Source of the DNA: Marsupella aquatica
Taxonomy: Eukaryota > Plantae > Marchantiophyta
Assembly: GCA_973895155.1 (NCBI GenBank)
Contig: OZ316896.1
Span: forward strand, 5,630,066-5,694,065
Length of the DNA stretch: 64,000 nucleotides
Reading direction: 5' to 3'
Translations under genes and position numbers: made by a program
Notes under the pieces: model-generated
Told to the model about the DNA's origin: nothing
Seen by the model: the letters and a program-made list of their open reading frames with translations, nothing else
Databases searched by the model: none
Part shown: positions 8,674 through 50,132 of the stretch, in pieces
Layout: the number at the start of each line of letters is the position of its first letter
Numbering within the stretch: the stretch's first letter is position 1

Positions 8674-9125
8674 AATCGAACAAGGTCAACTTTCATTGTT
8701 GAACTCTTCTCTTGATTCTGACTTGTTAAGGCTTTTAAGGATTCTATTCGTCAGACTCTTGCTTCTTGTTGTACTTTTTTAGTAGGAGTAGTGGTCGTCA
8801 TCGAATTCCTGGTTGTAGTCATTTGAGTGAAGGACGCTTTTGAACACTTGTCTGAACTCTAAGCAGTTGCAGGATTACGTACTGAACAATTATAGCACAT
8901 GAGGAAACTGAGTCAGTTTGCATTTAGCTTGCGATAGGATGTCTTGTTTTGTTACTATTCGAAAGTTTCTGTGTTGGTGCTGGAAACGAAAATGGAATTA
9001 TAGATCATCATGTTATAGAGATAAATGGCCGAGAGGGAGAGAACATTATGTTTCCAACCTTATGCCGCGCGTATGTGAGAGCTATTTCCTGGACCACAGA
9101 ATCAACGCACGGGACTCAAATGTGC

Positions 9126-9303
9126 ATTTTTGTTTCCCAGTTAGAAAGGGCTCATCAATTATTTGCCGTAAGTTTTAAGATCCTATGACATAGATCATCC
9201 CGAGCTCCTTTGGGATTTTTGTTTCCCAGTTAGAAAGGGCTCATCAATTATTTGCCGTAAGTTTTAAGATCCTATGATAGAGATCGTCCCGAGCTCCTTT
9301 GGG
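9126..9303. repeat. 89-bp tandem duplication
   Basis: atttttgtttcccagttagaaagggctcatcaattatttgccgtaagttttaagatcctatga...cccgagctcctttggg occurs twice, nearly identical. Confidence 0.9.
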
Positions 9304-23907: not shown

Positions 23908-26140
23908 ATGGTTGAATCTGATCTTACTAACCCTCTACTGAAGAAAAATGACCGAGCTGATGGACACGAAGCCACTGAAGTCGATGCGTCCCTTGTGGAG
24001 AAAGGGTTTCCTCTCAGTGATGCTAAGGAGTCGTCACTCCAGGAGAATACCGTCGATACTCGTGGGAAAACTTCATTTTGGCCGACCACCATGAACCTTG
24101 TCAACATTTTGATAGGTCAGTTCAGCTCAATTTTTGGTAGCATTCAAGTGTCGATCCCCTCAGTCCCTCTTTTCGTGCCAGTCGAGCTCATTTGTGTCCG
24201 TGGCCAACTGAAATTTATGACCAGCTGATCGACAATGTTATTTGTTGTCCACAGGTATGGGACTGATAGCTCTTCCAGCTACTTTCGAAGAAGGGGGCTG
24301 GCTGTCGCTAGTTTTACTCTTAGGCTTCGCTTGCATCTGTTGTTATACAGGATTGCTGTTGGGCCGCTGCATGGAAAGGAAATCGGGCATCAAGACCTAC
24401 CCAGATATTGCAGATGCAGCTTTTGGTTCTCGGGGCCGAAACATAATGATGGCAATCATCTTCTTGGATATCTCTGCTTTCCTGGTTGGAAATACCATAG
24501 CGCTGGGTGACAATCTAGCCCGAATCTTTCCAAATGCTAGACTGAATCTCCCATGGTTCGACATCGCGCTGGAGCCTTCGCAGGTTCTTGTTATAATCGC
24601 TGTGTTGGTGGCTTTACCAAGTACATGGCTAAGAGATATGAGTTCGCTTTCCTTTATTTCCGTGGGAGGTGTGGCGACATCTTTTGTTGTAATTGCAGCT
24701 CTGGCATGGGCAGGGCTGTTTGGTGGGGTGGGGTTTCACTATTCTCCCCCACTTTTCAACTTGTGGAATGTGCCAATCGTATCCGGGATCTACGCTTATT
24801 GCTATGCTGGACATATTCTCATACCGAACATCTATAGCGGCATGGCTACTCCAGCTCAGTTTCCACGGGTAAGATCTCAATTGCTAAGTTTTGACTCCCT
24901 CTTTGATTGCCTAATCATTATGCTCCTGGTGCTGAGTGACCGTAATTTATTTTTCGCAGATTGCATTGGTGTGTCACGGTCTTTTGTGAAATTCTATGTT
25001 TCCGTTCTTTGAAATCGTGGAGAATTAAAGGAAGACGTTGGTCAAAATTTTCTTCAGATGATGAACTTAGAGGTGAATTTCCAAACTTGTAAGCAAAGCA
25101 AACTTTTCTGGACTTCACCCGGGAATTTTCATTGTCATGTTCTCCGCGCATTCCAGGGCTGTTCACAGTCAATTGCTGATTAATTCGAGGTTTGTTTATA
25201 ACTTTTTGGTCCGCCGCCGTTGTGGGGAAAAACAAATTGCTCCAGGCATAAAAGTTGTTACACACGACGATAAGAGCAGTGACGCGGCTTTAAATAAACT
25301 GGTGTTCATAAGAGTGCACTACGTGGAAAAAGAACGATGACGATAGCTCTGCTACAGACTCATGAGTCGTCTTTTGGATGTTCGGGCTCCATATTCATCT
25401 TGTGTTGTAGAAACTAAGTGTTCTCGCTCTGTTTTTCATATAATATTTCTTGATCAGTCGGTACTATTGTTTGAGAATGATGTCGCTAGATTGGTTCCTG
25501 CCAACTGCCTCATGGCCGTCTACTATGAAGGTCAGTGCTAACAGCTTCAATCAGGTGATTAATCTCTGCTGAATCTCAAAGTCATAATTCAATTTGGGTG
25601 TGTGTTTGACAGGCTTTGATTGCAGCGTTCTCTATTGCTTCGGTAGTTTACGCAACAACCGCGATCCTCGGGGTTACCATGTTTGGCGAGGACACTCAAT
25701 CTCAAATTACTCTCAACATACCCAGAGATCTTACTGTGGCAACCATTGCCTTATGGACAACAGTGCTCACGCCTCTCAGTAAATATGGTTTGGCCGTAGC
25801 TCCAGCAGCCGAGCAGATCGAAGGCTTCCTTCGATTTCCACAAGATTCAAGGGAGTTTCTGACCCTGAGTACACTCATCCGCACCTTGATTTTATTTTCT
25901 GTGACAGCCATCGCAATAGCACTGCCTTTCTTCCACAACATTCTCGCCCTGTGTGGAGCTTCAATTGCCATGACAATGACAATAACGTTCCCTGCAATCT
26001 GTAACATCAAAATGTTCCGAAGATCACTGTCCTATGCTGAGATTGGTTGCAGTCTGGCCTGCATTGTTGTGGGCGTTTTGTTCTCAATTCTTGGCACTGA
26101 AACTTCAGTCAGGGCTCTAATTGAGGACTTGAGGAGCTGA
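23908..26140 (+). CDS. AVT1: Amino acid transporter, AAAP/Aa_trans family (AVT1-like), 3 exons, 449 aa
   Basis: Exons 23908-24115, 24255-24868 and 25613-26140 (GT-AG, 1350 nt in frame). Motifs: NLVNILIGMGLIALP, GGWLSL, CCYTGLLLGRCM, TYPDIADAAFG, LPSTWLRDMSSLSFIS, YCYAGH, MFGEDTQSQITLNIP. Multiple hydrophobic helices. The symbol is family-level only. Confidence 0.93.
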
Positions 26141-28295
26141 CAGTTTCTTCACTTGATTCCATAGCCTTTGAAGAAGTTCCGCGTTCAGTAGACTCAAGTC
26201 AAAAGTGATGCTCAGATTTCTCGTTAGATTTCTTGATCAAAAAGCTCTTGACCAATTAGGACTGTTGAGCATGGAGCTACGTGGAAGTGAGCCTTAGGAC
26301 TGATTGAAGCTAGGTTTTTCTTTCAGACAGTGGTGTCGATTTTTTCTTCAGACATTAGTGTCTTCAGCTTAATGGAAAATTAATATCATTTCTGAGACTA
26401 GGAAGAAAGCATTGAGGAGGAAGACGCCATAGAAATGATATTATCTCTCCAGGATCTTAGAATTTAGACAATGTCCTTAGTAAACTAATTCATCTCGACT
26501 TCAGGGTTGAGGATTTGGAGGCATTTCCAAAGTATCCCAGCTCAGCATTCTCAGGATTCAATTGGGCTGGCAAAACTAGTTTCACCCAAACCATACAAAT
26601 GAAGACTCCTGAGATATAAGAGCATCAGATATTTCAATTCTCAATTTGTCACCTGCCACGTTAGTATATTCACGAAATGCGTTTTGTTATTCACATAGTT
26701 TTCAAAAATTTCATAACTATATAATTATATTTTTGTTCATAATAGTCAATGTGTTTCGTGGATATACTGGCGTGGGCGAGTGACAAATTGCATCGCATAT
26801 AAACAATTTATGGATATGAAAAACAAAAATCATGAAATATCAAAACTTGGAAACAAGTATGAACCAAGTAAGTTGGAGCTAGAGGAGCGTGGAGGAGGGG
26901 CTGGAAACAAGGGAGGAGAACATCAACTGAGGCATGTTAAAATTGGCAGAGCTTTCAGATTCAGATACAAAAGATGATTTTGCTTTGACATAGGACAAGA
27001 GTCACTCCTCTATTGTGTCATGGGGTGGCATCAAGTTCAAATACCACATGTAAGCTTAAACCCAAATAGCAAGTGGTCCAATTTTATATGTTGATAAGTT
27101 GCAGGCCAATGGATTCCTTGCTAAGATTAATTCAATCCCTCTTTGGCGAGAAAGAGTAATAGTTGCAAGGCTCAAGAGATAGGGTTGGGCAGGGGTTGAG
27201 CAGCCAATCCCACACATTTTTCCTGTCCTTGTGATTGAAAGGCAAGCATGATAAATCCGAATTGGATGATTCAAAAGCAATATGAATTGCATTGGTAGAA
27301 AGCTAAGTTTGCTTGGGCTTCAATTCCAAGTAACTGGGCCACTCAACTGCATGGGGCACTCAGGTGAGGGAAAACAGTAACCCCCACCCCTTTTTTCCTT
27401 GTAGTTTAAGGGGAGGTTCCGGCCTCATAATCCCCAGCCAGCATCAGCAAGTCTCAAATTCTAAAAATGAGTTTCAAAATTTTATGTGAAAAAGAGTGTC
27501 CAATGTTAGGCTTGCTAACCCTTAGTCTGCTTGGAGTCCACCCCTCGGGTTACCCTACACAAAGTATGTAGCTATTGAATTGCCAGTGGGAAGCATTCCA
27601 AGATGAAACCATGTTTCAGGTGAAATCCTTACTAGGAATTCCCCACCCTCGCCCTATTTCAGATCTTGTGCAACAAAACCGTTCAAGAGGATGCAGTGCT
27701 TTGCAGTTAACCAAACGTGTCCCATACCGCCTTGATGTCCCTACAAGCCCGGTTTTCACTATCGGACAAGATGTGTCCTTGTCCGACACGACAAATGACA
27801 ACTTGTCCGTCCAAAAACTGTCTATTTGTCCAATAGTCCTTTATATTCCCCGGCCCGGACCAAACATGCAATTCCCGACCCCTCCCGGCCGAGCACCACA
27901 CTCTCCCGACCCTCCCGGCCTGGTCGAAACCAATTCCCGGCCCGGTCCTAAAATCCCCCGGCCCGGCCCGGCCGGGGTTTCGGGAAGGGGGCGGGGTCGG
28001 GAGGGACGGGGGAGGACGGGGTCGGGAGGGACAGGGCCGGGGCGGGGGGGGGAGAAGAGGGCGGTCGGGAGGGACGGGGCGGGGGGTCGGGAGGGGAGGG
28101 AGGTGGGGAGGGTGGTCGGGAGAGAGTGGGCCGGGGCGGGGGGGGAGGGAGGGAGGTGGGGAGGGACGGGGCCGAGGCGGGGGGTGGGAGGCCGGGGCAG
28201 GGGGCGGGGAGGGAGGCCGGGGGGAGGGGAGGGAGGCTTTGCAATTCTTCTTAGTTTTATTGTCTTATAATGATATGTCCTCCCTTAGTGAATTG

Positions 28296-28660
28296 TAATG
28301 GAGGAATATATAAGAATTCTTGTATGCGTGGGTCTGGAGCCTCGGCTCGGCTTGGGATATTTCATAAAAGAGTTCTATATATTACCTTAACAACTTGACG
28401 TCATTTATTTACTAAGCAAAAAAATTTCAAAGGATAGAGAAACCCATGTGCGTAGGCTTGGAGCCTTGGCTCAGTCTGTGATATTTCACATGTGTGTCAC
28501 GATTTTCCTGAAAATATTTTTGCTTTATAAAGAAATGATTGTTAAGTTATACATATTCTATAACTTAGGACGAAGTAGGGATGTAAGCAAGTATGAGAGA
28601 TCGGGAAACGATGGTGCGTAATCTTGGAATCTTGGCTCAGGTTGTGGTAATTCATCAAAG
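28296..28660 (+). repeat. Left arm of a ~350-bp internal inverted repeat (three ggagcctcggctcggcttgggatatttc-type units) upstream of the transposase
   Basis: Aligns by eye to the reverse complement of 35908-36254, including spacers such as gataga(g/a)aaacccatgt. Confidence 0.8.
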
Positions 28661-28729
28661 TGTCATCATTCCACTATCCCTAGGCATGGAGCAAATCATT
28701 CGCGAGAGCATGGTGCAAAATTTTCTACG

Positions 28730-31160
28730 ATGTGGAAATATTTCTAACAATGTGATGCGCCTTTAACATCTAATGATGTGAACCGTATCTATCGAAAATG
28801 CAAGTTTTGTAAAACATATAATATTTTTTATGCAACACGAGCCAAAGCACATTTGATGGGAAACATCATCAAAGGGAATGCACCAACATGCCTAGGCCTA
28901 TATGGTCATGTGGAGTTGGATGAAATCAACAGAATGTACAATGTAATCAAACTTCCATCAAACATCAACTACAAACGAAGGGATGGAACCCATATCTTGC
29001 GGGATGTAAGGGGTCACAAGCCAGAGATTGGAACTTCCAATTCACAAGCATCCACACGAGAGTCAAACCATTTTCAAATGGAGAATGAGTCAAATACGAC
29101 TTATATGGCTAGGGCGCGCATGAAGTCTTTCGAACCCGATTATGGATGCTTATCAAATTCCACATAGAACGTATTTGGACAAGCTTTGGGCAAACGATTT
29201 CTACACAAGTGGTATTGCATTCAATGTTCCACATAATCCTTATTTTTGAAAAGCAGTACATGAGACTTCAAAAGGTATTGTAAATGGGTATTCTCTTCCC
29301 ATTATGCGGAATTTGCGAGTGAAGTTGTTGGAGGAAGCCAAGGAAGATCTTACAAACAACATCACCAAAACCATGAAGGAAACAAAACCTTTTGGTTATT
29401 CGCTTTCATCAGATGGATGGGAAAACATCCGTATGGAACCTTTGATGAACGTGATGTTGTTGACTTCCAAAGGAGATTTTTTCATAGATGGTTGGAATGC
29501 TGCGCAAGCAGATAGAAAAGATGGAAAATATCTTGGAGAAATGTGGCTGCAATATATTGATGAAATTGCGCCAGAACACATTATACAAATAGTCACTGAT
29601 GGCACACCTGCAAATCGTGTAGCAGGTTGTGACATAGTGATGAAAAAATATCCACATGTCACTTGGAGTTGATGTGCTGCACGAGGTGCTACCCATGTGT
29701 TCAATTGTTGTTAGAAGATGTGTGCAATCATAAGAATGTAGTGCTAGATGAGAGCAGACAAAATCCATTCAAAAACATTTTTAAACGCTTGAGATGGATA
29801 GTAAAAGCAGTTTCATCATCCCAAAAGCTCTCCGCAATATTTGTGAGAAAATCTGCTTACAAAAAACTACTAAATCCATGCAACAAGATTTGCAACGAAT
29901 TTTCTCATGGCGCAAAAAGCATTGGAGCTAAGAGGAGCTCTGCAACAAATGGTCATTGATGATAAATGAGAGTCTTATCGTGATAGACTTCCTGTGCAAG
30001 CAAAGTCAAATGGGCACATGACAAGGGCCAAGGCAGAAGAACTCAAAGCGTGGATACAACAAGATAAATTTTGGGTTGATGTGAAGGCTACAATGAACTT
30101 TTTTCTTCCGTTGGTGAAGATGCTTTGCAAATTTGATGGTGCTTCACCCCAGTCAGCCCTCGAGTCAGCCTGGTTGTATTGGAGTTTGAAAAGAGGGATT
30201 AGTGATTTAAAGGCAAGCATGGAGGAATGTCCATTGGTAACAGAGTTCTTGAAGCCAAGGATATTAAAAGTGTACATGGATCGAAGAGAATCTCTTACCA
30301 CTGATTTTATGCTAGCTATAGCATATATCAATCCTCAAATGTTTTTTATGAAGACCTAGATATTATTGGAGATGGAGAAATGTGTTGAGGTTTCAATGAG
30401 TACATTGCCCGATGTGCAGAACACAAGGTAAAGGAAGGGATCAATCATGATCGTGAGGTTAATGCACTCATTTTTGCCATACAATTGCAAGCAATTGATG
30501 CGCAAAAGAAATTACCAAACATAACAGTAACCATGAGAGGAGCCCAATCAAGTATAGGTCAAGTAAGTCCAAGAGAGTGGTGACATTCATACGGTGCTGA
30601 TTATCCAGATTTAAGAGTTATGGCTAGAAAAATCTGTCACCAATAGATTGACAAATGATTGAGTAAAGAATTTAGTGTTTGTTTTCACAAACATGAGAGT
30701 GGAGAAAGGGCTTACAAAAGTAAGAAATCCCCATACGTTTATATATAAACGTTATGAGGAAAGAAGAGCAACAAATGACGGTGTTAGGTCATTATCCACT
30801 GAGAAGATTGACACTGAAGGGTATGATGCAACATGTGCCGCCCATGGACAAGAAGATGTCGAAGATTTTGATGCAATTGATGATGCATATGAAGCCTTGG
30901 AAGGATTATCATTACATAAAGAGGGTGACTTCTTGACTCGTCTTCCACCAGATACAGATGTAAGTGATGCAGGTGATTGGGAGAATGAAATGGATTTTGA
31001 GATGTATCATACAATTGACGAGTTGCAAATTGAAGATGAAGATCATGCATCATTGTATTCAGATTTTGCAACACCTTCCCAACCAAAGGCATCTTGGGTT
31101 TATCCATCATTGAACGTCCACAATGATGTCGACCCAAACAGATCATATTTTATTCAATAA
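28730..31160 (+). pseudogene. hAT transposase (BED finger, DUF659-type DDE core, C-terminal dimerisation region), disrupted
   Basis: WKYF...CKFC...RAKAHL...C (BED); LSSDGWENI..PLMNVML; IIQIVTDG; KKYPHVTWS*CAA; PREW*HSYGADYPDLRVMARKI; LVFVFTNMR. Several stops, frameshifts and an internal deletion. Confidence 0.9.
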
Positions 31161-32269
31161 TGCACTACCATACAAGGGCATCATTCAGAGAGATCAGCTA
31201 TTTTTCAACAACCATATAATGTTCAAGGTACATCTTTGGACAACACACGTGCACCATGGGAACAAGCTGCTACAATCTTCAATGAGTATGGAGGTCAGAG
31301 TGTGACGAATCCATATACATCGAACAATCCTATTGATAGTGAATTTCAAACAACATCATCATTTCAATAAGCTCAGAGGAATGCTCATACGCAAAATCAC
31401 GACCCAATTGCATGGGCTGCAGAGGAAGAGTGGAATCAAGCTTTGCAACAAAATCACAACAAAAATACTAGGAATTTTCTTTCACAGCCTTGAGAAATGT
31501 TGTCATTACTATATTAACATGCTTTGTTACTATTGTATTGTCTTTACTGACAATAACAATGTTATCATATGTTTTTTTGTCATGAATATAAGTTTTTGAG
31601 TTTTATAAGTGTCACGATTCGCAAAATAATGTTTCACGACCAGGTATTTGTATCCATTTTTCAAATCTACCTTGTGTCTAGTTTAAACTTTATGCCTCAT
31701 AGGATTTGTGTAAATATGTTTAGGTAGTTATACTACAAAATGGGCTAAATCATCTATAGTGTAAAATACACAAACACATCACACGAGCTCGGCCAAAATG
31801 CGACTCCATGGCAAGGGATATATGATGTCACTACAATATTTCTTTACCAATTACACTTGAAAACAATTGTCCAAGATGATTTTGCAGGTGCTAGCAAAAA
31901 AAGTCTCTAATAGTAACTACATCAAAATCACATCAAAATCTAGAGACTATTGCTTTCATATCTTTTTTCTAGTTGATGTCAATAGCTTCTGCTTTCACTT
32001 TTGCCTCCTGTTGACATCGTCAATGACGACGAATAGATCGTTGCATATTTTGTTTGTCTATTGATGGCTGGTTGGCTGTAGCATATTCTTTCTATTCATT
32101 AATCGACCACTAAGAAGCAACCTGTCAAATTCGTCATCTAACAAATTATACTCATTGATTGTGAACTATTCAATGGGAGTGGAGAATCTATTTGTGTCAT
32201 CGCTACACTCTCTTGTGTCATTTCTTAAGTGTCTTCATTGTTGTGTCTCCATTGATGACATTTGGTCCA

Positions 32270-33932
32270 ACAATCCTCGTTGCCAATATTCACGTTCATG
32301 AAATGGTGTGACACCAACATTTCCTCTCTTCTTCAACCATTTAAACAAACAAGCATGATGTCATATATGTCCACAAGTTCCCAACATGGAAACAGATTCA
32401 GGCCCCATGGATATAGGCACCAAGTACACTTGTCATCTTTTTCACGAACAAATGCTGTCATAGTTTCATCATTCTTTCACTTATCAAAATATTTATCAAT
32501 ACCTTCTGCACTAGCCTCCACAATCTAGAAAAAGGGTGTTGTATCATGTAGAATCAATAATCTGCATTTGAACAAAATCTTCTGATGTTCTTTTTTTACC
32601 CACATCCCAAATCACCATTGTTGAAATTGGTAATCTCCTCGTGCAAATTTGTTATGATGAGTTGTTGAGATGCAAGCTCATTTTAAGGATGATGATTTTT
32701 TTCTTCTTTTTAAGTTCTAGCACTTGATTAGATTGACCTTCTCTGTTGGCAAGTTGTTGAGTCAACTTCTTGATTTCTTCCATCTTGTCAAATAATTGAA
32801 CCTTGTACATAATCACCTCAGAATTGGTCGCCGATTCCATAAGCCTCTTCTCTAGTGATCGTATCTTCAAATTAGCCTCTTGTAGTTTTGCCTTGTATCT
32901 TTTCATGCTGCCAGATTCACAAAGCTCAACAACATACTTTGTGCGAAGATTCTTCTCAAGCAAATCACCAATCTCTGCTCCCAAGCTCTTGCATACATGT
33001 TGCATGCTGAGCCTCTTCTTGTTAGGAGGTTTGATGTTGATTACATGAGGAGTTATGCTTCCAACCCCTGAAATATTTGGTCTTTTGTTGATGGTAGACT
33101 CCACATTGCTTGGTGTGGTTGCTGGCTCAGGCTTCACAAGGAATTGCAAAATAAGTGTCGGTTTCTCCCTTTGGTTGTGTATTCACCTTTTGCACCTCAT
33201 CCATTTTTCTTTTGCACCCCTTGTTAGAGGTCATGATTGGAACATCTTTCTTTGCACTTTTGCCTCTGTTGTTGTAATAGCATGCACTGATTTATGCACA
33301 TAATGGGTCACCATGTTGCCATCGTTGTTTTCCCAATGGTAATCCACCTTCCATTTTAGAATGAACTCGACAATCAAATATCAAAGAAAAGGAGGATAAG
33401 AAGAACTAACTTTCCCGTTTACCTTATTTGGAGCATATTCCCAAAATCTTTGTTGCCAATGCGTGGTGGCATCTCGACGTGTTAGCCTTGACATGGTAAA
33501 TTTGTCCTGTAACCACGATTTTATTGTCCATATTTTTGGATCGTCAAAAAGCTTTTTCACAAATTTGCCAAACTCTGCTTTGGGCATCAAAATCTCTAAT
33601 TCTTTAGCGTTGATTGGCCATTCATCATGAGGAGGTTTCATGTTTTCTGTTGTGATGTTCCATTCCAAATCGACACTTTCATCCTCCAACTTAGTTGGAT
33701 TTGGCAAGGGGTTCTTGTCGCCCGTACCAATGTCACAAGTATTGGGTTCAGACTCATCTTCCAACCCATTTGTTGGAGATAGCGAGTTTCCATGAATATC
33801 ATGGTCAAAGTGATCGTAATAAGCATCTTGAGCGTCTTGCATGTATAAATGATCATATTTCTCTTTTGGAACTTTTTCATCATCATCAGAATCCAAATTC
33901 CATTTTGTCATGTTTGCAAGATCTATAAACAT
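32270..33932 (-). pseudogene. Cargo gene: acidic N-terminus, coiled-coil and C-terminal RING-H2-like finger, disrupted
   Basis: ORFs 33381-33932 and 32652-33149 (heptad-rich KAKLQEANLKIRSLEKRL). Manual translation of ~32430-32310 with one frameshift gives DDKCTWCLYPWG/PESVSMLGTCGHI*HHACLFKWLKKRG. Confidence 0.6.
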
Positions 33933-34078
33933 ACAAATATATTTAGAAAAAATTCAAATATTCATGAAATGACATGGCATAATAATATGAACAAATAAGA
34001 TATCACTTTATAACAACCATGTGATTGTTTGTGACTTCATGACTTCATGTAGTAATTAGAGGGCCAAGTTTCACATGT

Positions 34079-35767
34079 CTAATCTCTAAGATAAGGACTA
34101 TTTTTGGCAAATAGTTTACAATCTGGGAATGTCCGAACCATCTTCAAACTCCAAAAGGCACAATCTTGCATTTTCTTCACCTCGGTGGCCATCATATCAC
34201 AAACCATTTCTTCCAATTTAGGATCATGCTCCAAGGCATTCCAACCCCTACCCAACCACCGTGTCCTCATAAACGCTCCATCCCAATTCTCTAAAAATAG
34301 ACTCTCAAAAATGTTGCCCAAAACATATATATCAATTGCAGCATTATACTCTATTAAGATGGGCGAACCAAGCTCTGGAGTCAATTGTGAATATTGTTTT
34401 TGATAGGCTACAACTTTATCTATAGGAGTATACCACATTTGATTCTTTGGTAGTTTGCATTGTTACTTATGTTTGGACAAGTCAAAATCATATAAGCCAA
34501 CATACACCTTGATGGCTACATCCTCCTCATAGTCAAAATGTAGAAGAATATTTTCAAAGTGAAGATCACAATGGAATCGGTTGTGGTCATGCAAATATTG
34601 CAACTTCTCAAGCAGTGCCAACACAATTCCCAATCGGTTCTCCAGAAAGAGTTTCTTTTCATAAACAAACTTGAAATCAATGTTGGAGAAACCTTGTGAT
34701 TTCCCTTTGCTATTTGACCAGAATCCGCATCTATCTATGAAGCTTCCCGAATCACCTCCATTATACTGATCATACACAAGTCTTGGTGGATCATCAATCG
34801 TCATTGCCAAAGCCCCAACAATTCTCTTATGATTTAGTCCTTCCATAAGCATTTCTTGTAATGCATCTGTTCCTCTCTTCTGCTTATTTCTTTTTTTGAA
34901 TTTTTTTGCCACTAGTGTGACATTCATCGGAATAAGTGGACAATCTAATACGTGACAAGTGTACACCTCCCCTTGCACGCCTTTTCCGATGGGATTAGCA
35001 TTTTGCACCTGCTCAGGCTTCAAGAAATGGATACTCCTCACATCCGAAAGTACACGTGATGGACATCTTTCTTTTGCATCACTTTTGATACTCACATCCC
35101 CAAACTGCATCACCTTGTTTACATATTTCATGTTGCTTTCTGCTTTTGTCATTGCCAACTCTTTACTCTAAGTTGATAACAAGTCCCTCTTGTGCTTATA
35201 CATCCCAGGATTTTCAAGCATTGTAGTATCACCCAAGCTCAATTTTGCCACCATCAAATCTCAAATAATAAACTCCAAATTCACTGCCAAATTGTCAATA
35301 AATCCAGCTGGTTTCTCCCACTCAACTACAAATGCGTCATTATGCTCTCGTGTGAAACTATCTTCATCCTCTACACTTTCACACATATAACAAGTGATCT
35401 CATTCACAAACTTCTTGTATCCTTTCAGACCGTGCTTTGTAAAATCTATCTCAAATGCATTCTCCTCATATTGCTTTGGTTGAGTGTAACGATGTAGTAC
35501 TCCTTTCCAGATCGCCACTACTGCATTAAATCGGACTTGTTTGACCTCAACATTCTTCCCTCTTCGTTTCCTCTTCCCAGTCACTTTGCCAGTAGTTGGT
35601 TTATACTCAAGAGTGTTTCGTGTATTCCTAAGTGCTTGGAGGGCCACATGATCCGGTTCAGCCCCCTCATCAAGAACTGTAGTGATTGTTTCCAGCAATA
35701 GCCTGTATTCTACACGACTAGTCGAGTCCATTGTGGCTTCACCGGAATGGTCCATCACCTTACCCAC
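34079..35767 (-). pseudogene. Cargo gene: protein kinase with an N-terminal extension (~560 codons, 3 in-frame stops)
   Basis: ORFs 35261-35767, 34463-35158 and 34079-34438 share one frame. Kinase motifs: IGKGVQGEVY, VAKK, E-helix/LNHKRIV, LQYLH, HCDLHFENILL, DFD (DFG), TPE (APE), DIYVLG. Confidence 0.88.
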
Positions 35768-35907
35768 TCAATGAACTGCCCACAAACACCCTGAGAATCA
35801 CGGATTGACGTGATTGTTATGCACTACATCTTTCATTTTTGTCTTTTATTGCAATTCATTTTTATTAATGTTTTGAATGTCACAACGGTAAAAGAAGGGA
35901 GAACATA

Positions 35908-36254
35908 TTTGTGAATTATCCCATGCCGAGCCTAAGCTCCAAGCACGTGCACAAAAGTTTTTTTTTTTCAAAGTTACGACATTCCTACTTGGATCTATGT
36001 GATATCTATAATTTAATAATCATTTGCCAATTGAGTGAAAATAATTTCGAAGAATTGTGATATCCATGTAAAATATCACATGCCGAGACAAAGCTCCAAG
36101 CTTGCATACATGGGTTTTTCTATCTCCATAAATATTTTGCTCATTTGAAAATAATGATAAAGGTGATATGAAAAGACTCCTAATACGAAATATCCCATGC
36201 CGAGCCGAAGCTCCAAACACAAGCGCACAGGAATCTTTTTATATCCCTCCATTA
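35908..36254 (-). repeat. Right arm of the internal inverted repeat, upstream of the kinase gene
   Basis: Three atc(c/a)catgccgag...agctccaa units at about 35915, 36070 and 36190, reverse-complementary to the units at about 28335, 28455 and 28625. Confidence 0.8.
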
Positions 36255-37856
36255 ATCTAAATTTTATTTTTTTATGGTTTAGGGCACAAACTCAATTTAG
36301 GGTTTGGATTTAGGGCACAAACAAAATTTAGGGGTTTAGGTTTAGGGCATAAACAAAACATAAATATATACACTATACAAACAAAGTACATACAATTCTA
36401 AAATAATATTCATACATACAGAGATAAGTAATCTCATCAGTTATCAGTCACTTTCATCAGTGTACCTGATATCAGCTGCCACCTCATCTCAGAGAGGCCA
36501 CCAAGTTGCGATGCAAAAAAGAAAAAAATGAAGAAAAAAAATTCTTGAATTTTTCTTCAAAATTTGAAGGAAAACTTTTTTTTTCAAAATTTTTTTGCCA
36601 TGAGGCGTCCGTACCGTACGGACACATATCTCGGCGAGCCCAACATTTTAAAAAAAAAATTTGGGAAAATTTTTGGTTTTTTTTTTCCACGTTTTTTTCA
36701 GTCCGTACGCCCCATCTCGGCGAGGCTAGCTGAGATGGAGAAAAAATTTTCAAATTTTTTTTTCAAATTTTTTTTTCAGGAAATTCTTTTTGGTTTTTTA
36801 TTTTTTATTTGTTTTCGGTCCGTACGCCCATCTCGGCGAGGTCAGCCGAGATTGAATCAACCTCGGCTACCCAGCTGAGATGAGCGGAAGTTCGAAGGCC
36901 CCATCTCAACTCCTCAGCTGAGATTCTATAATATATCAGCGACTGATATCAGTTATCAACCACTGATAACTGATGATGTTGTGTATCCCATATGTACATT
37001 CCAAAATAATATTCATACATACATTCCAAAATTACATTCATACATACATTCAAAACAATATACATACATATATACATTCAAAATAAAACTTAAATCAAAA
37101 CATAAATCAAAACATACACCATAACATAAATCAAAACATAAAACACAAAACAAACTTACCTCTATACACCTTTGAACCTTCCCTCCCTCTCCTTGCTTCA
37201 CTCTTGGCCTCCACAAAGCACAATGAGCCCTCCCTCTTCCTCTCCCCCCTTTTATGCTCCCGGCTCGACCCCTCCCTGCTCTCGCTCGCTCCCGGCTCCC
37301 GGCTCCCGAACCCTAATCCTCCCGAATCCGCTCGCCCAAAAACCCTAAATCCAGACCCAGCCGACAGCCCGGCCTGGTTCGCCCGCCATTCCCGGCCCGG
37401 CCCGGTCCATTTCCTCTCCCCCCCTCCCCACCCTTCCCAGCCTGGGCTCACTTCCTCTCCCCCCCCCCCTCCCCACCCTTCCTCCCCACCCTTCCCGGCC
37501 CGGACCGGGGCTCATTTCCTCTCTCCCCCCTCCCCCTTCCCAGGCTCCTCCATTCCCGGCCCTCTATCACATCCCGGCCCGGCTCTACTTTCTCCCGGCC
37601 CAACCTCGTCACCAGCCGGTATCGGCCGGGATGACATATGTCATCTGTCGTCCCAAATACTCCTATTTGTCCGACAAGTCCAAACCGGGCCTACAAGCCT
37701 ATTTTTTAAGTTTTGTTTTTTTCCATCGAGTGGAAAATATCACCTAGTGTGAAGCATTTCTAAAAATATTCTTTACATAATGTGTTTAGTCTAATTCTTT
37801 ATCATAGATCTCATTAGATTTAAGGAGAACAGTCAGATTCTGGCAAATTAGGTCCC

Positions 37857-38230
37857 AAAAGATGGGTACCTCATCAGGTTTTTTTCTCTGATAAAATGCA
37901 CAGCAAGTGGATATTATCCTGTAGCCATGATGATTTGGAGATATACGTTGACAAATGTAACAGATGTATTTTTTTTCTCTGATAAAATGCACAGCAAGTG
38001 GATATTATCCTGTAGCCATGATAATTTGGAGATATACGTTGACAAATGTAACAGATGGAAGCTCAACAAGTGGAAGGCACGGAGAAATTGGGTAGCAAAA
38101 GATGGGTACCTCATCAGGTTTTTTTCTCTGATAAAATGCACAGCAAGTGGAAATCCTTTTCCTGTAGCCATGATGATTTGGAGATATAAGTTGACAAAAC
38201 TAACAGATGGAAGCTCAACAAGTGGAAGGC
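37857..38230. repeat. Three near-identical copies of an ~85-110-bp unit
   Basis: ttttctctgataaaatgcacagcaagtgga...cctgtagccatgat(g/a)atttggagatata..ttgacaaa..taacagatg at about 37880, 37970 and 38120. Confidence 0.88.
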
Positions 38231-38862
38231 ATGGAGTGGACAAGTGTCAAGGGGCATGGGCTCTCGCCAGCTCTAGCTATGATGATATGAAAAAGGACCT
38301 TGAAAAAGCACATCCACGCAAAAATACCTTGTTCACACCAACTTAATACTAGGAAAAAGGACGAATTTACCGAAAAGGGCCAAACATACAACAAAGTAAA
38401 AGCAATTTATGGACAAACACCAAACTCATTTAAAGAGGTAGGGCGGGGCCAGAGACGACCAAGACCAAACTCAATTTAGTGGTTTTCCCAACTGAGTCCC
38501 AATGGCCAATGCTCAACAGACCTGTTACTTGTTAACGTCTGAAACGTCTTAGTGTGACTCGATGCTAATGTTTGCTGGTTCCTATATTTTTTTCAAATCA
38601 CGTGAAGGGAAACCATGCCTGGAAACTCATTACATTGAAGCTGCTATAATGGTGAATGCACATTTCAGATTTTGTCTTATTCCAATTTTTGTGTCATGTA
38701 TTTTCATTTCAATCTGCCTTATCAAGGGGCAGCCTTTGTATTCTATACATTTTTAATTAATTTTTAGACCCCTTTAGTTTTAGGTATTTTAGAGTGTTTT
38801 GAACTTATTTTGGCAGTCCCCTTTCATAGTATGTGTTTTCTTAGAGAAGAAACCAAAGGCTC

Positions 38863-39397: not shown

Positions 39398-42300
39398 CTA
39401 CTTGTGAGGCAATTGCAAAACCTGCAACGCATCACGGTGTCTAGAAAAACTCTCCAAAGGAATCACTTTGGTAAAAGCGTCAGCCGGGTTGAGTTTACCG
39501 TCAATCTTGACTAGCTCAAACATATTATCAGACACAGCTTGCCTGATAAAATGATACTTGACATCAATGTGCTTCACTCTACTGTCCATCACCTGGTTCA
39601 CAGCAAAGTGAAGCGCACTCTGACTATCACAATGGAGCTTCACATTCCCCTATGGCAATCCCATTTCAGTGATTAGTCTATCCAACCAAATCGCTTCCTT
39701 TGCTGCTTCCGCTGCTGCAACATACTCCGCTTCTGTAGTAGACTGAGCAATACACCTCTACAAGGTAGACCTCCAACTTATGCATCCACCTCCCAGTGTG
39801 AACACATAACCTGTTGTTGACCTCCTCCGATCCAGATCCTGTGCATAGTCAGCATCTATATAGCCCATCAATGATCTAGCATTATCAGCATGTGCATCAA
39901 ACAGTAGACCATGATCCACGGTACCCTTCAAATACTGAATAATCCACTTCACTGCTTCCCAGTGTACCTTCCCTGGATTTGACATGTACCTGCTCACCTT
40001 GCCCATAGCCATGGCAAGATCAGGTCTAGTACAAGTCATCAAAATACATGAGACTCCCCACTGCCTTGTCATACGGAACCTTTGACATCAACCCCTTTTC
40101 TGTGTCATCCGTAGGACAGAAAGCTGATGACAACTTGAAGTGTGGAGCCAACGGGGTACTTACTGACTTGCTATCCCCCATGTTGAACCTTGCAATTACC
40201 TTCCTTGCATAACTGCCCTGCGTCAACCATAGCTTACCAGCCTTCAAGTCCCTAGTGATCTCCATACCCAAAATTCTCTTAGCTGGCCCTAAGTCCTTCA
40301 TCTTAAACTCTGCACTAAGCAGTGCTTTGAGCTTAACAATCTCAGACCTATCCTTGGCCACAATAAACATGTCATCCACATAAAGTACTAAAACAATGAA
40401 CCCAAAAACAACATTCTTCACCGGTTTAAGATACACACATGGGTCAAACACACTCCTGTGAAAGCCTTGTGCATGGATCCAATCATCAAACCACTTATTC
40501 CATTGTCTTGGTGACTGCTTCAACCCGTACAAGGATCTCAGCAATCTGCAAACCAAATCCTCTTGCCCTTTCTTCACAAAACCTAACGGCTATCTCATGA
40601 AGATCAACTCTTCCACGGTGCCATAGAGGAAAGCTGTGACAACATCCATCTGATCTAGCAGCAGACCAAACATAACAACAAGCACACACAATAGCCGTAT
40701 TGTTGAGTACTTAGCAACTGGTGAGAAGATCGACCTCATTGTAATCCACACCTTTTTCCTGTGTGAATCCTTTGGCTACCAACCTAGCCTTGTAGACCTT
40801 CGATCCACCTCATGTGGACTGATTCTTCAACTTGTATATCCACTTGCAATCCACCACTTGCTGTCCCTCAGGCAGCTTGACAAGCTCCCAAGTTTTGTTG
40901 TCCTTCAGTGACTGCATCTCCGTTTGCATTGCTACAGTCCACTCCTGCTTCTCCTTTGAAGCACTTGTTTCATGAAATGAAGAAGGTTCCCTTTCTTCCA
41001 AAATCAACGCATCACCCTCATCATCAGTAAAAAAGTCCTCCTCTTGCAACTGAGATGAATTAACCCATTGTCCATACCTTGGTGGAGCGCGTACAGTGCG
41101 ACCAGATGTTCTTCTAGCCGATGACTCCGGTTGATCTGCGTGTGCTGGTATAATTTGAAGCTCAGCAACATCCACTTGCTACTCACCAGCATCAACAAAC
41201 TCCTCTGGTTCCTCTGGCACAGGAACCAACTCCATAATTGGAGCAACTCCTTCTCTCCGGTCATGCACCTCATGACCAATCTTCCCCTCAACAAGATCCA
41301 GGATAGGAGATTTTTCTTTGTCAGCACGGGAGACCTGAGTATTCTCCCCCTCTTTCAATAATCTGGATTCATTGAAGGAAACATCCCTACTGACAACGAG
41401 CTTACAGGCAATAGGATCCCATAGCCTATAGGCTTTCACACCACTCTGGTACCCAAGAAAAACACATTTCTTGGAGGTAGGATCCAACTTGGTCCTATTC
41501 TGCTTCGGTGTGAGAGCATATGCATCACTTCCAAAAACTACCAAGCCATGATAGTCTGCTTGCCGCTTATAGCGCATCTCAAACGACGTTTTGAAATTGA
41601 TAGCACTAGAAGGAGAAAGATTTATCAAATAAGCTGCGGTATTCACAGCTTCTGCCCAAAATTCCTGTGGTAAACCTGATTGGCTCAACATACTCCGTGA
41701 CCGCTCCAATAGTGTCCGATTGAGCCTTTTAGCGACACCATTCTACTGCGGAGTATAAACTATGGTGAGATGACGAGTTATCCCCTGTTCTGAACAGTAC
41801 TCTTCAAATTCCGTTGAAGTGTACTCCCCGCCGTTGTCTGACCTTAGACTCTTCACCCTTGTATCCAAACACTTGATTGTATTTTCAGTCTGATTCTCCA
41901 TCTAGGCCTTCCACTTCTTAAAAATGGATAAGACGTCAGACTTATGCGTCATGAAATGAATCCACACAAATCTTGAGTAATCATCAATAAATGATACATA
42001 GTACAACTTTCCAGAATGTGAGGAAGTCGGGGATGGATCCCACACGTCACTATGTATGTACTCAAGAACCGCTTTAGAATTATGAGTTCCAACACCGAAA
42101 GCACAACGATGCTGCTTTCCAAGAATGCAATGCTTACAAAACTCTAATTTACAAGATTGCAAATCAGAAATGAGTCCATTCTTCCGTAAGATAGCCAAAC
42201 CCTTCTCACTCATGTGGCCTAACCGTGAATGTCACAGTTGAGTCATCTCCTCGTGAGACTTGGTTACATTGGCCTCTCCACATATAGTATTGCCCTGTAA

Positions 42301-43715
42301 CACATACAAATTCTTCTGTCTGCTCCCCTTCAAAATCACTGTCTCTCCCGACCTGACTTGAAGTTCACCATCAATAACGCTCCATTGATGACCATTTGAA
42401 TCCAACACACCGAGTGAAATCAGATTCTTACGCATGTCAGGTACATACCTGACTTCGGACACTGTGCGCACAGCGCCATCAAACATTTGAATCTTCACAG
42501 ACCCAATTCCCTCAATTTGATAGGAGTGATCATTTTCCATCAGAACTGAACTGTTTGAAACAGAGTAAGAACTGAAAAACTCACGAATGTAACAAATATG
42601 AAAAGAGCAAGCACAATCAAGAATCCACACATCATCTACTCCCCTAGATGACGTGCACAGGGCATACCCCCGGCTTCATAAAACATACTCATCATTGAGT
42701 AAATCAGCTTCTCCATCAAGCCTAGCCACATTTGTCGATGAAGATTCCGCTGCCTTTCCCTTACAGTCTCGCTTGAAGTGTCCAACTTGGTTGCACTTCC
42801 AACATGTCACTTGCCTCCTCTGAGGGGATTTACCCCTGGACTTAGATCTGGATTTAGATCTAAACTGGGTTCTACGGTCTCCAGTTGGTCGTTGCATACT
42901 CCTCCCACGGTTAATATTGAGGGCAGCACCAGATGATGAAGGCTGTGACGTGATGTACATCTTCTACTGAAGATCATCACTAAGCAGAGAACTTACCACG
43001 TCATTGTATGAAATGGTATCCCTATCACGATACAACAACACTCGTGATAGGGACTGGTAAGATGGAGGCAATGAACTGAGAAGCTGCAGAGCCTTCGTCT
43101 CATCATTCAAAGTCTCCCCAAGATTTTCCAAGTCAATGACCATGTCGTTGAAAGCATCCACATGGTCTTGTAACTTTGTACCAGATTCCTTTATCCTGAA
43201 ACTCATCAGTTTGTAGGAAGTGTAGAGCCGGTTTGATAACTCCTTGCGGTGATACTTGCTCTGCAATTCCGCAAACAAGGACATGCAATCCTTATGTGCA
43301 CCCAACTGCTTGATGATGGGAGGCATGAGATAGAGTGTAACAACCACACTCCCTGCTCCTGCATGCGGTCCCATTGTTTCTCATCAACATCATCTTCACG
43401 AGGGCTCAGCAGTTGGCCCATCCCTGACGCATAGAGCACTCCCTTCACCTGCTTCTCCCATAGCAAGTAGTCAGAGCGCCCATCATACTTTGTCACTTCA
43501 TACTTGGGACCCCCAAGCTTGAAAGTCCCCATCTTCTTCTTTGGCACTACTGTGAGCTCTAGTAGTAGTACTGCTTCCTCCACCACACGCCGCACCAATG
43601 ATGGTACCGGTGTCACGTGCTCTTCCTCCTGCTCCTCTCTCTGTCCCTCTAACCACCGCGGTGATCCTCGTGCTTCAAGTTCCACGTCTTCAAAAAACTC
43701 CTCCGAATCACTCAT
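39398..43715 (-). pseudogene. gag-pol: Copia A gag-pol, with multiple stops and frameshifts
   Basis: YDGRSDYLLW (gag), CWKCNQVGHFKRDC (zinc knuckle), WILDCAC (protease), CKHC...IHSDVW...FIDDYSR (integrase), LYGLKQSPRQW and LYVDDM (RT), CDSQSA...KHIDVKYHFIR (RNase H). Confidence 0.95.
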
Positions 43716-45251
43716 ATGAGAAAATCACAAAAAATATCATTTTTCAACCTTCTCAAAAAACTTGAAACTCAACACCGCCGCGTAGCCCACAAAGCTAGGA
43801 GTCCAATGCTGAAAACCAAAATCAAAATCAAAATTTGACGGAAGAGTTATTCAAATTTCGGTCGGGGTGGGTAAAACCTTGGGAAACTCCCCCGTTTTGA
43901 CCACCTCAAGGAATAACCAAAATACCAAGTACAACTCGTCGTCGGAATCGCGATGTGATCGGTGCGCCGCGTTGCCAACTTCAATGGCTACGACCTCGCC
44001 GAAAAAGAACCAAAAAAGTTACCGTTTGGCGGACGGAATCTTTGTCGGATGGCCAAAAAACAACTCTCTGTTTTTTGGGAATATTCTCGCACAGTCCGAC
44101 AGGTCTCACAGGGGGCCGTTCCCCCTGTCTAAGCGGTTAAAATGGAGGGTCACAGGGCCCAGGATGCGGCACAACCAATGAGGAGGAAGAGAAAAAAATA
44201 AAAATAAAAATAAAAATCAGAAAAAACACTTTAAAGGGGTCTTAAAGCCCCTGGAAAAGGCGCACGTATTCGCAGCCACGCGCGCGTATTCGTGACCAGA
44301 ATCGCGTATAAACTGCCAAAAAACGTGAAAAAACGGGTTTAAAGGGGTCAAAACGTGCGTATTTTTGCATATTCGGGCCGTATAAGGGCGTTTTGGGCCG
44401 TATTTTCACCAGAAAAAGCACATTTTCGCGCTTAAAGGGGTGTGGGAGGCCGGGGCGTGCGCCGGGGCATATGGCGAAGTAGGTTTGTCGGGATTTGAAG
44501 GTATACAGGCCATATGGGGGCAAAAAAATGCCCTAAACTAACCTTAAAATGTGCCAAAAAATGACACAAAGGCAGTGTTACAAACCTCAGGTGCCTCCGC
44601 TTTGGTTTCCAATGAGAAAAGTGATGACTGCCGACATGAAATATTGCCAAATTGCACCGGCACGTCTGCAGCTCCACCAGAGAAGAGAAAACCTCCGCCG
44701 TGTCTTACTCTCTCCGCGTCAAGGGCCAATCTCGGACTCGAAACGATCGCCTCACCACGATCTCTCCGTTGAGCCTCAGCACTTCGCGTTTCTTCCTCCA
44801 AGACAAGCGTCACGACGAGTAATCCGGTTCAGGGAAAAACAAGCACCATAGCTTGTCAAAAAACCAGAACTCAACTTTCACTCGTCACGACGCACTCGCT
44901 CCACAAACGCCAGCAAACCAGGTACCAAAACGACCAGCTCGCTTCAACCTTCAACTTGAGCTATAACATGCGATGCCTCCCGCACCGCACAGCTCACACC
45001 GTTGAAAAAAAAATCTCTGGTCTCTCTCCCGAAATCCCGTCGAACACGAATAAACCCTGAATGATGCAAACTTCAATTCCTCCGCACCACGGATACCGAT
45101 CAGCAAGTTCTAACCACCGTTAGAAAGCCCTCTCACTAACCTATTCGCTCAGCCACACACATTCGAGTTTCATGCGACGAAACCCCAAATGCAACACCAA
45201 TAATGAATGCTGGAAAACCGTCACGAAAAAACCTCGTCACCTCCCAGACAT

Positions 45252-48646: not shown

Positions 48647-48962
48647 TCCCTGATAGTACATGGATGCGTTGTTCATATATGACTAGGCCTTTGTTTGCAA
48701 GGCTGCAATTGTACCATCCATGATATATGAGAATATTTTTCATTCCCATTATGTGGCAAAGTTTTGCAAGCTGGCATTGTATTTATGTATGTCTTGGTTG
48801 GTGGGTGTTCAGGTTGCACTGTGTAGTTGACTTCATCTGGGAGGGAGGTTTGCAGATCATTGGAGCAGGTGCTATGATTAACCTTATCTTTGTCTATGGA
48901 TTGCTCACTATCATCATGTCCCCCTCATATGTGATGTGCTTTGTGATGATTGCAGTTGAACC

Positions 48963-49637
48963 ATGCCGACAAGGACTTCAAACATAAAGAAAGCAACACA
49001 GTCCTCTGACAGAGGAGCCTCTTTGGAAGAGGTATTGCATATTCCGTTGTTCTCTGAGCAAGAGATTCTACAAACTAGCCCTCATGTTTGTGCAATTTGT
49101 GAGCATGGTGGGAAGTTGGTAATTTGTGATGGGCCATGTCACAGGCAATTTCATTATGTGGTTGGAGATGAAGCCCCTAATGACTCTTGCCCCTGTGTAG
49201 TCCTTCCCCTCCATCATGGAGGGAAGCCATGGTTTTGCCCAAATTGTAACCAGGACCAGGCCATGTGTTATGGGTGCCGCACTGTGGGACCGTCACCTAC
49301 AATTGTGCGAAAATGCTCTGATCGTTTTTGTGTACGATTTTATTGCTTTGGGTGTTTGGTAGCTGATGCAAAGTCCTGCCCACTGCATACATGTGTGACA
49401 TGTTATCAGAGTCTTGAGGGTCAGATGGTCAAGAACATGGTACAATGTCTACGATGTCCAAATGCCTGGCATACAGATTGTCTCCAGATGATCAAAAGCA
49501 AAGGGTTCGCTCATGATAGGGACATCTGGGACCATGAAGCACATGGACAACAGCGACAGATGTTTTATTGCCCCCGTCATCCTATTGATCCACACCTCAA
49601 GACTCCAATCAGGGACCACATTTCATGGCTCCAGTGA
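48963..49637 (+). CDS. Stand-alone EDM2-type (NSD-like) composite PHD-finger protein, 224 aa, uninterrupted
   Basis: VCAICEHGGKLVICDGPCHRQFH...WFCPNC...CYGC...C...C.RFYC..C...CPLHTCVTC...CLRCPNAWH..CL...RQMFYCPRHPIDPHLKTPIRDH follows the plant EDM2 PHD region as I recall it (CAICDNGG...FCPNC...CPLHKC...CRRCPKSYH...LIYC..H.ID..L.TP.RDH). Confidence 0.85.
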   Translation: MPTRTSNIKKATQSSDRGASLEEVLHIPLFSEQEILQTSPHVCAICEHGGKLVICDGPCHRQFHYVVGDEAPNDSCPCVVLPLHHGGKPWFCPNCNQDQAMCYGCRTVGPSPTIVRKCSDRFCVRFYCFGCLVADAKSCPLHTCVTCYQSLEGQMVKNMVQCLRCPNAWHTDCLQMIKSKGFAHDRDIWDHEAHGQQRQMFYCPRHPIDPHLKTPIRDHISWLQ

Positions 49638-50132
49638 TCTGAATAATGAACAAACCTATTACTTAGGTTTCAACGTCTTAGTGGGGTATGAGCAAGGCAC
49701 ATACTTAAGGTGCATCATGGGTGGTAGTACCCAATTTTATTAGTGTTGACATTTTGTCATAATTAAGGTCACTAATAGTGCTGCATTTTGATGAGCAGAA
49801 GCACTAAACTTCGGGAATTGTTAGAAAAGCAGGTGAAAAGGATATTTTGTCCAAAGATATTTTATCCAACTTTAGCGGTATATCATGATTTTCACTGAAT
49901 ACATTTGCATGTATGATGGATTGCATTATAAAGTGTTTTGGCCTATTAGCACTTCTATTGTTAAATGTATGCTGACATTATGTACATTACATGAGAATGT
50001 GTATGTTGTCATTGCATCTCTTGAAGATCCTAATGTGTTTCCCTTGTGTGTATTTCAAATGTATTTGTGCAGGTCTTTCTGTTATCAACTCCAAAAGCAA
50101 TGGTGCTATGCATGTTCTAGATTTGTATTGCA

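Follow-up and report, generated by a model that had tools for sequence, protein, structure and literature searches.

The best known plant hAT transposons, Ac/Ds, Tam3 and Tag1, share 8-bp target site duplications (TSDs), short imperfect terminal inverted repeats (TIRs) and short subterminal repeats. Their transposases share a BED-like finger, an RNase-H-like core (DUF659) and the hAT C-terminal dimerisation region. All three are one-gene autonomous elements. The element described here resembles them in these features, with the dimerisation region as a remnant. It differs in its length of 9.9 kb, which takes in a second and a third full-length gene, both encoded opposite to the transposase. It lies at 27748-37689 of a stretch of 64,000 nucleotides from the liverwort Marsupella aquatica (GenBank assembly GCA_973895155.1, contig OZ316896.1, positions 5,630,066 to 5,694,065 of the forward strand), which we call the window and whose numbering we use throughout. 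The two extra genes encode a protein kinase and a coiled-coil protein with a RING-H2-like motif, the latter called here the middle gene. The locus is one decayed copy of a bounded, repeated family of hAT DNA transposons. The family is unusual, but the copy is an ordinary-looking dead one. We believe that the kinase and the RING-H2-like protein are probably long-standing, integral and selected genes of the element, and we predict that they are accessory proteins.

The boundaries of the element are clear. Read directly, CCTACAAG occurs at 27740-27747 and in identical form at 37690-37697, directly outside CCCGGTTT (from 27748) and AAACCGGG (to 37689), and the element between the two copies and their inverted ends measures 9,942 bp. 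This is the 8-bp TSD of the hAT superfamily. Because the element begins with CC, the flank repeat is also legible as 10 nt (CCTACAAGCC), but the ends are symmetric only under the 8-nt reading. The left TIR (CCCGGTTTTCAC and onwards, 27748-27773, plus strand) and the right TIR (ending in GTCCAAACCGGG, 37664-37689, minus strand) are short, as expected of hATs; their outermost 8 nt are inverted without a mismatch, and the alignment extends to about 26 nt with one gap. The GTTTTCAC within the TIR presumably resembles Tag1. Both ends start with CCCGG, whereas Ac/Ds-type elements start with CA or TA. Even with 3 mismatches allowed, the left terminal 20-mer has no second occurrence in the window, which thus contains a single copy of the element. 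Two left-flank contigs from public sequencing runs end at 27780; the break expected of a k=31 assembly graph at a repeat beginning at 27748 is no more than 3 nt from there. The first-pass annotation of this DNA had proposed a unit enclosed by a perfect 8-bp TSD and TIRs, with a plus-strand hAT transposase and two minus-strand cargo genes inside. The coordinates prove exact, the same 8-mer stands on both sides of ends inverted over 8 of 8 nt, and between them lie a DUF659 match, a gene with kinase Pfam matches and a middle gene with relatives elsewhere. There is no TIR/TSD pair around the cargo itself, which speaks against the idea that the cargo is a separate nested insertion.

The element is built as a mirror image. 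From each end inwards come the TIR, CCCGGCC repeats, a G-rich tract, three copies of a module and a gene facing inwards, which is the transposase at the left end and the kinase at the right. This subterminal architecture is mirrored across about 1 kb. The middle gene follows 3' of the kinase on the same strand after a gap of 170 nt. The left subterminal region (27849-28240, plus strand; G+C 0.70) has seven CCCGGCC motifs at 27849-27973 and then a G-rich tract of about 270 nt. The right one (37180-37640, plus strand) has a C-rich tract, inverted with respect to the left G-rich tract, and again seven CCCGGCC. In each case the G-rich tract is on the sense strand of the adjoining gene, at a G+C of 0.65-0.70. 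The window has 15 CCCGGCC on the plus strand; 14 of them fall within the two element ends, as do all 8 occurrences of CCGGCCCGG. In the left arm the CCCGGCC block and the G-rich tract are partly complementary (27880-27911 against 28114-28145, 78%), and could fold back on each other.

The module is about 65 nt long, with the core TGGAGCYTNGGCTCGGCNTGGGATATTT. Three copies stand upstream of the transposase (28296-28677, plus strand) and three, as their mirror image, upstream of the kinase (35902-36251, minus strand). The core has six matches in the window, three on each strand, against none expected, so the element-specific repeat module that the first-pass annotation placed ahead of the kinase is real. 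When the six window copies, and no others, are made into a profile, it finds three matches directly upstream of another kinase, in the same orientation, on a metagenome contig that we call L001 (E 2.6e-8, 0.006 and 0.03; 26 bits against 12 bits for the best of 200 shuffles). The module also stands ahead of the transposase, in mirror orientation, and therefore belongs to the hAT itself. Ac/Ds-type elements differ from this one in that only here is a 65-nt module found in triplicate ahead of both end genes. As a conserved sequence, the module lends itself as a candidate promoter of the transposon or a candidate site of protein binding. An Rfam scan of 27000-38500 at E up to 0.1 gave no match. 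Between the kinase-side modules and AT-rich repeats there are also six TTTAGGG motifs, plant telomere- or telobox-like and read directly (36278-36345, plus strand), that are without a counterpart in the left arm.

The transposase is a pseudogene at 28679-31160 on the plus strand, with a BED-like CxxC...H finger, DUF659, a remnant of the hAT dimerisation region and an acidic tail. The hAT/RNase-H-like core is matched by Pfam DUF659 at E 9e-21 (74.5 bits against a cut-off of 34.7). It is 79% identical to a DUF659 protein of the liverwort Calypogeia fissa (P0021) and 61% identical to P0022, a protein of 807 aa that has both DUF659 and Dimer_Tnp_hAT. The dimerisation domain, PF05699, is found in P0022 at E 1e-10, and the window's own frameshifted open reading frames (ORFs) give no Pfam match to it. 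Residues 566-665 and 688-787 of P0022 do map to the window; residues 666-687 (CERNWS) are without a counterpart. By tblastn P0022 aligns in 5 pieces and P0021 in 3, with changing frames, and the copy is broken by in-frame stops, frameshifts and a deletion.

The kinase pseudogene (34082-35755, minus strand) consists of 558 codons in one frame, for a helical N-terminal domain followed by a divergent kinase domain. Its ORF reaches 43.7 bits with PK_Tyr_Ser-Thr (cut-off 23.1) and 40 bits with Pkinase (cut-off 31.7), and an intact relative, P0010, reaches 60.2 and 55.8 bits. It had been described as one long intronless frame. There is indeed no intron and no indel in the frame of about 560 codons, but it is not open, with stops at codons 165 (TGA), 196 (TAG) and 431 (TAA). 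At these positions the relatives have W in 8 of 8, W, and S in 5 of 6 (A in the other), respectively. Where the relatives cover the catalytic motifs, they keep DFG in 7 of 7, HxD..N in 9 of 9 and APE in 6 of 8, and nearly all keep the Gly-loop, Lys and Glu motifs. We predict from this that the family is active and the window copy inactive. A basic cluster (GKRKRRGK in the window) is kept in all nine kinase sequences that cover it, the window copy included, and appears similar to a nuclear localisation signal (NLS).

A word-indexed search found eight relatives of the kinase in metagenomes and run assemblies, at 45-64% protein identity, all of them unnamed or called 'serine/threonine protein kinase'. 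The intact ones have 540, 544, 547, 550 and 553 aa and are colinear with the window kinase over its full length. Searched against 1.84 billion representatives, the kinase profile gives 672 matches at E 0.001, and the number falls to 59 at 1e-10 and to 19 at 1e-30. Members of the family take up roughly the first 40 places, many of them as fragments of 100-290 aa and some with the N-domain only; below these come generic kinase domains. The best solved kinases (DDR1, ALK, ROCO4 and RIPK1) match only at E 3e-7. By these comparisons the family is remote from cellular kinases. The same profile found no relative in viral contigs and prokaryote genomes. In all three pairs among the kinases of the window, L001 and a second metagenome locus, L002, the proportion of nonsynonymous differences (pN) is 0.30-0.35 and that of synonymous differences (pS) 0.69-0.76, the latter being saturated. 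This argues that the kinase lineage has been under long-term purifying selection. An AlphaFold model of P0010 (11 sequences) has a mean pLDDT of 51; it is confident in the all-helical N-domain at about 62-197 (pLDDT 80-93) and poor in the kinase half. Compared by VIA-align with 48,161 chains, the model reached a best Z of 7.5. The kinases among its matches fall on the poorly modelled C-half, and for the N-domain (Z about 5) no solved fold rises above the noise from helical bundles. For P0010 the ESM Atlas returned nothing but generic kinases.

The middle gene is a pseudogene running from 33911 to about 32010 on the minus strand, with an acidic N-terminus, a conserved domain, a coiled coil, a RING-H2-like motif and a short conserved C-terminus. 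It amounts to about 630 codons in a single intronless frame, as traced by tblastn and by alignment with P0019 (C. fissa, 543 aa) and P0020 (471 aa), with which it is colinear across 400-458 residues. Residues 511-539 of P0019 match 32096-32010 at 79%. A GT at 33423 was considered as an intron donor and dropped, since both relatives read straight through it. The copy is broken by TGA stops at 33383, 33233 and 33185, by stops at 32477 and 32361, and by a deletion of 1 nt at 32400. That deletion and the stop at 32361 split the RING-H2-like motif (C-x2-C-x14-C-x-H-x2-H-x2-C; 32300-32428, minus strand). Read across the deletion, the motif supplies the first six ligands of a RING-H2 domain; the last ligand pair is lost in the window copy. 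The RING half 3' of the deletion (56 residues, stops as X) matches 11 RING families at E below 1. They are led by zf-ANAPC11 at E 2.4e-5 and 24.7 bits (cut-off 25) and zf-rbx1 at 24.1 bits (cut-off 31), and zf-RING_2 reaches 21.3 bits (cut-off 27.3). P0020 ends ahead of the RING stretch. 'RING-H2-like' is therefore a fair label. A search of PDB sequences gave no match for the middle gene, and the ESM Atlas had nothing at 0.9 for P0019, its own model having a pLDDT of 0.40.

We surveyed copies in the contigs of 4 public runs from two studies and under two organism labels, at 80% likeness or more. Across the four runs, the summed contig depth of bins ranges over 14-127 on the flanks, 220-20,846 on the transposase, 158-29,117 on the middle gene and 112-9,727 on the kinase; such a sum is not a copy number, and we take it only to mean 'repeated'. 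The depth on all three genes is 10-100 times that of the flanks in each of the four runs. Diverged contigs bridge the junctions between the genes. Record 10 of run X2 runs from the end of the kinase to the start of the middle gene (33814-34296, 59 differences), and record 14 of X2 and record 22 of X3 run from the start of the kinase to the module (35454 to about 36000, 82-83 differences). A joint in X2 (30913-32027) takes the transposase to the end of the middle gene and is a deletion derivative. The same cargo is thus found inside the ends across many copies, as in cargo-bearing DNA transposons, in 4 of 4 runs and, for module and kinase, on L001. There was no RNA run among those listed as holding the element.

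These copies also tell us how the window copy decayed. Kinase stop 196 (35169) is TGG in all 29 differing contigs over the 4 runs, which make up 94-100% of the local depth in each run. The middle-gene stops at 32361 and 32477 are TGG in 38 and 48 contigs, and the base deleted at 32400 is present in 21. These three stops and the deletion are therefore absent from most other copies and private to the window copy. Of the 11 kinase differences listed, 10 are residue-changing and the other takes away a stop, which fits decay of the window copy; at several of these places the other copies have the residue of distant relatives. In the C-terminal part of the middle gene the copies differ by 13 synonymous, 11 non-synonymous, 2 stop-removing and 1 stop-making changes. 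These counts take differences carried by at least 40% of reads in frames supported by homology, and exclude 13 rows without a supported frame. The synonymous excess (binomial p = 0.02 against a share of 0.32; the expected share is 0.35 for transitions and 0.14 for transversions) is a modest sign of selection.

Relatives of all three genes exist in Calypogeia fissa. At least 10 dispersed kinase models lie on 9 scaffolds, one of them intact (547 aa, 48% identical to the window kinase), and two fragments are 72% identical to it. There are also six transposase models, forming one 90% cluster, and one middle-gene model. In metagenome contigs the kinase search found only the two loci L001 and L002, the latter a kinase copy with in-frame stops. 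L001, 5.8 kb long, has an intact kinase of 547 aa at 46-49% identity. It keeps module and kinase with another downstream gene, and the conserved unit is therefore module plus kinase with a varying partner. The contig opens partway through a module, which places the element's end and any transposase beyond its sequence. In two frames, positions 2527-5821 of L001 encode a protein with a length of 1,000 aa or more and with DUF6729 at the start (E 2e-11). The remainder of this large protein has no further match to a Pfam family, the PDB or PHROG, and we found no paper on DUF6729 (PF20499) among the open-access papers searched. It may be a transposase or a cargo gene.

What do these results say about the cargo? 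The first-pass annotation had suggested that the kinase and the RING-H2 gene are dedicated accessory functions rather than random gene fragments. The kinase that supports this is colinear at full length, remote and constrained, and its frame in this copy is not open. Pack-type elements carry partial host genes, and that is not what is seen here: the kinase is colinear with its relatives from end to end and the middle gene over 400-458 residues. That the cargo might consist of host-gene fragments is not borne out, given a full-length colinear kinase whose best solved match is only E 3e-7 and which shows purifying selection. Nor is the cargo unique to this copy, as the depth of its genes in all four runs and the bridging contigs make plain. 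Purifying selection on the cargo ORFs was to be looked for and is seen in the kinase (pN about 0.3 against a saturated pS of about 0.7). Their intactness was to be looked for as well and is lacking: the kinase has three stops, and the middle gene has at least five and, in addition, a 1-nt deletion. The call of a coiled-coil/RING-H2 gene holds for the coiled coil and six ligands, and is qualified by the broken copy, the atypical last ligand pair and the low scores. As for linkage of the three genes in related genomes, module and kinase stay together on L001; there the partner gene is another one, and C. fissa shows no adjacency.

It is important to set out what weighs against integral, selected cargo genes. 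The window copy is dead in all three genes, and its kinase reads DFD for DFG and TPE for APE. Just one of the three kinase stops is among the contig differences listed, so the other two are judged private from the relatives only. The purifying selection on the kinase could stem from family members that are host genes. The RING scores with Pfam all stay below the curated cut-offs, the loose ends of other copies read K-C-W-C-R-T-P-F, that is C-x-C where C-x2-C is canonical, and the C. fissa middle-gene model P0019 is without the RING stretch. The gene after the L001 kinase, with its DUF6729, is unlike either the middle gene or the transposase, and the trio is linked in no second genome examined, that is in the L001 flanks and among the C. 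fissa models. The C. fissa entries seen comprise 6 models of the transposase, 1 of the middle gene and 10 of the kinase, and accessions of different kinds are never neighbours among them; this weighs only mildly because transposable element genes are patchily annotated.

Some of these points would be expected under transduplication without function, in which a hAT took up two complete host genes and multiplied them as passengers of no benefit to itself; the intact relatives would then be host genes. There is a precedent, since capture and amplification of a whole host gene, histone H3, by hATs is described for Dothideomycete fungi (PMC6710886). The death of all three genes in the window copy, the lack of linkage among the annotated C. 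fissa models and the pairing of the L001 kinase with another gene are all in line with it. However, the kinase is without a near cellular relative, as only generic kinase domains follow after some 40 family clusters and the best solved match is E 3e-7. The same non-coding module stands ahead of the window kinase, the kinase of a 46%-identical relative and the transposase, and the middle gene shows a synonymous excess between copies of the element. In our opinion transduplication is unlikely. The L001 contig can also be used to argue for a chimera, in which kinase and middle gene came from another mobile unit (module, kinase and a variable partner) that inserted into an ordinary one-gene hAT or recombined with it. 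The module-kinase pair recurs there ahead of another gene, and the 5.8 kb contain no hAT gene. In fungi, moreover, cargo genes move from one transposon superfamily to another and carry no end signatures themselves (PMC12730594). But there is no second TIR/TSD pair around 31.2-36.3 kb, the module also stands ahead of the transposase in mirror orientation, and L001 starts within a module, with its end and a possible transposase off the contig. We regard a chimera as quite improbable.

The argument would also fail if there were no element at all, with an 8-bp repeat and inverted ends that are coincidental and three pseudogenes that merely adjoin one another where repeats abound. Past 8 nt the short TIR is imperfect, and no empty site was seen among the contig rows listed. 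Several observations speak against coincidence: the perfect repeat of 8 nt directly abuts ends that are inverted without a mismatch over 8 nt, in 4 of 4 runs the depth inside the ends is 10-100 times higher and the flank contigs end at 27780, and the ends mirror each other over about 1 kb. We find it very hard to believe that chance produced this. A hAT family with its own kinase and RING-H2-like genes is the explanation that we prefer.

How would such an element work? The transposase would move it by hAT cut-and-paste, binding the TIRs and subterminal repeats, and the module may serve both end genes as a promoter or control element. NLS-like clusters of basic residues occur in the kinase and the RING protein alike. 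Both proteins would act in the nucleus, where the former could phosphorylate and the latter ubiquitinate proteins of the host or the element. The most likely purpose would be to blunt host silencing or repair, or to time the activity of the transposase. That the two are anti-host factors specifically is, we think, rather doubtful. A broader proposal is possible and is put forward tentatively: a liverwort hAT lineage with a protein-modification kit, made up of a remote nuclear kinase with a private helical N-domain and a coiled-coil RING-H2 ligase, both under the element's mirrored triplicate modules and directed against host silencing or repair, in which the module-kinase cassette can be swapped. 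As part of that tentative proposal, the RING protein here and the giant DUF6729 protein on L001 would be partners of the cassette in different elements.

The remaining features lie in and around the element. A MITE-like nested insert occupies 36421-36989, with inverted arms at 36423-36448 and 36962-36987. Contigs of X2, X3 and X4 jump from 36365 to 37014, and the insert has the highest depth of the stretch; it is outside the common structure of the family and belongs to a separate high-copy family. To the left, at 24221-26140, is a host-like amino-acid transporter gene (Aa_trans, E 3e-33) with at least 2 exons, as against the three intronless genes of the element. Directly to the right, at 37845-38210, are three 88-nt repeats that are 68-99% alike, and depth is up again from 38319, so another repeat lies there. 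Farther along on the minus strand there is a degraded Ty1/copia-type retrotransposon body (40026-43724) and a nearly whole one (58448-62614) with gag (309 aa), protease-integrase (485) and RT-RNase H (532) in adjoining frames. At 48960-54690 a PHD/NSD-like zinc-finger ORF (48960-49637) is followed by giant ORFs of 548 and 147 aa, with one stop between them, and of 749 aa. These giant ORFs have no Pfam or PHROG match and no likeness to the large protein of L001, and the region is possibly another large mobile element. A minus-strand ORF at 56424-56948 consists of tandem MGKSDAG(S/R) peptide repeats.

Two sets of fungal elements offer comparisons for the cargo. The hATs of Dothideomycetes that captured histone H3 (PMC6710886) are likewise of the DUF659 type and carry and amplify a complete gene that is not a transposase. 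Their cargo is a recent copy of a recognisable housekeeping gene whose copies are inactivated; the cargo of the window element has no near cellular relative and shows long-term constraint as a family. The TET/JBP-positive hAT7 and IS3EU DNA transposons of fungi carry enzyme cargo, and IS3EU families have a transposase, a TET/JBP gene and an alpha-kinase gene opposite to the transposase (Kojima 2025, PMC12730594). These elements and ours have in common cut-and-paste transposition, a whole enzyme gene kept inside the TIRs across families and partner genes that vary, and with IS3EU there is the further likeness of a kinase opposite the transposase. The differences are a plant of the liverwort kind instead of a fungus, a Pkinase fold instead of an alpha-kinase, and RING-H2-like cargo instead of TET/JBP.

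Among the open-access papers searched, none describes a hAT whose cargo consists of a protein kinase and a RING gene, and we take this multi-gene variant of hAT to be new. If the cargo works for the element, a plant cut-and-paste transposon brings enzymes for phosphorylation and ubiquitination with it, much like the tools with which viruses disarm their hosts. If true, this would provide a way of testing how DNA transposons escape silencing in bryophytes. It also means that the liverwort models of this kinase family called 'serine/threonine kinase' or 'unnamed protein' (at least 10 in C. fissa) are probably genes or wrecks of transposons, not parts of host signalling.

Transposons with several genes and accessory proteins are well known: PIF/Harbinger elements have a Myb-like ORF, En/Spm has TnpA, MuDR has mudrB and VANDAL has VANC. 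If its cargo is functional, the Marsupella element would share with them a second element protein that is required for transposition or escape from silencing, or aids it. It differs in that those elements belong to other superfamilies, and in that their accessory proteins are DNA-binding or anti-silencing factors and not a pair resembling a kinase and an E3 ligase.

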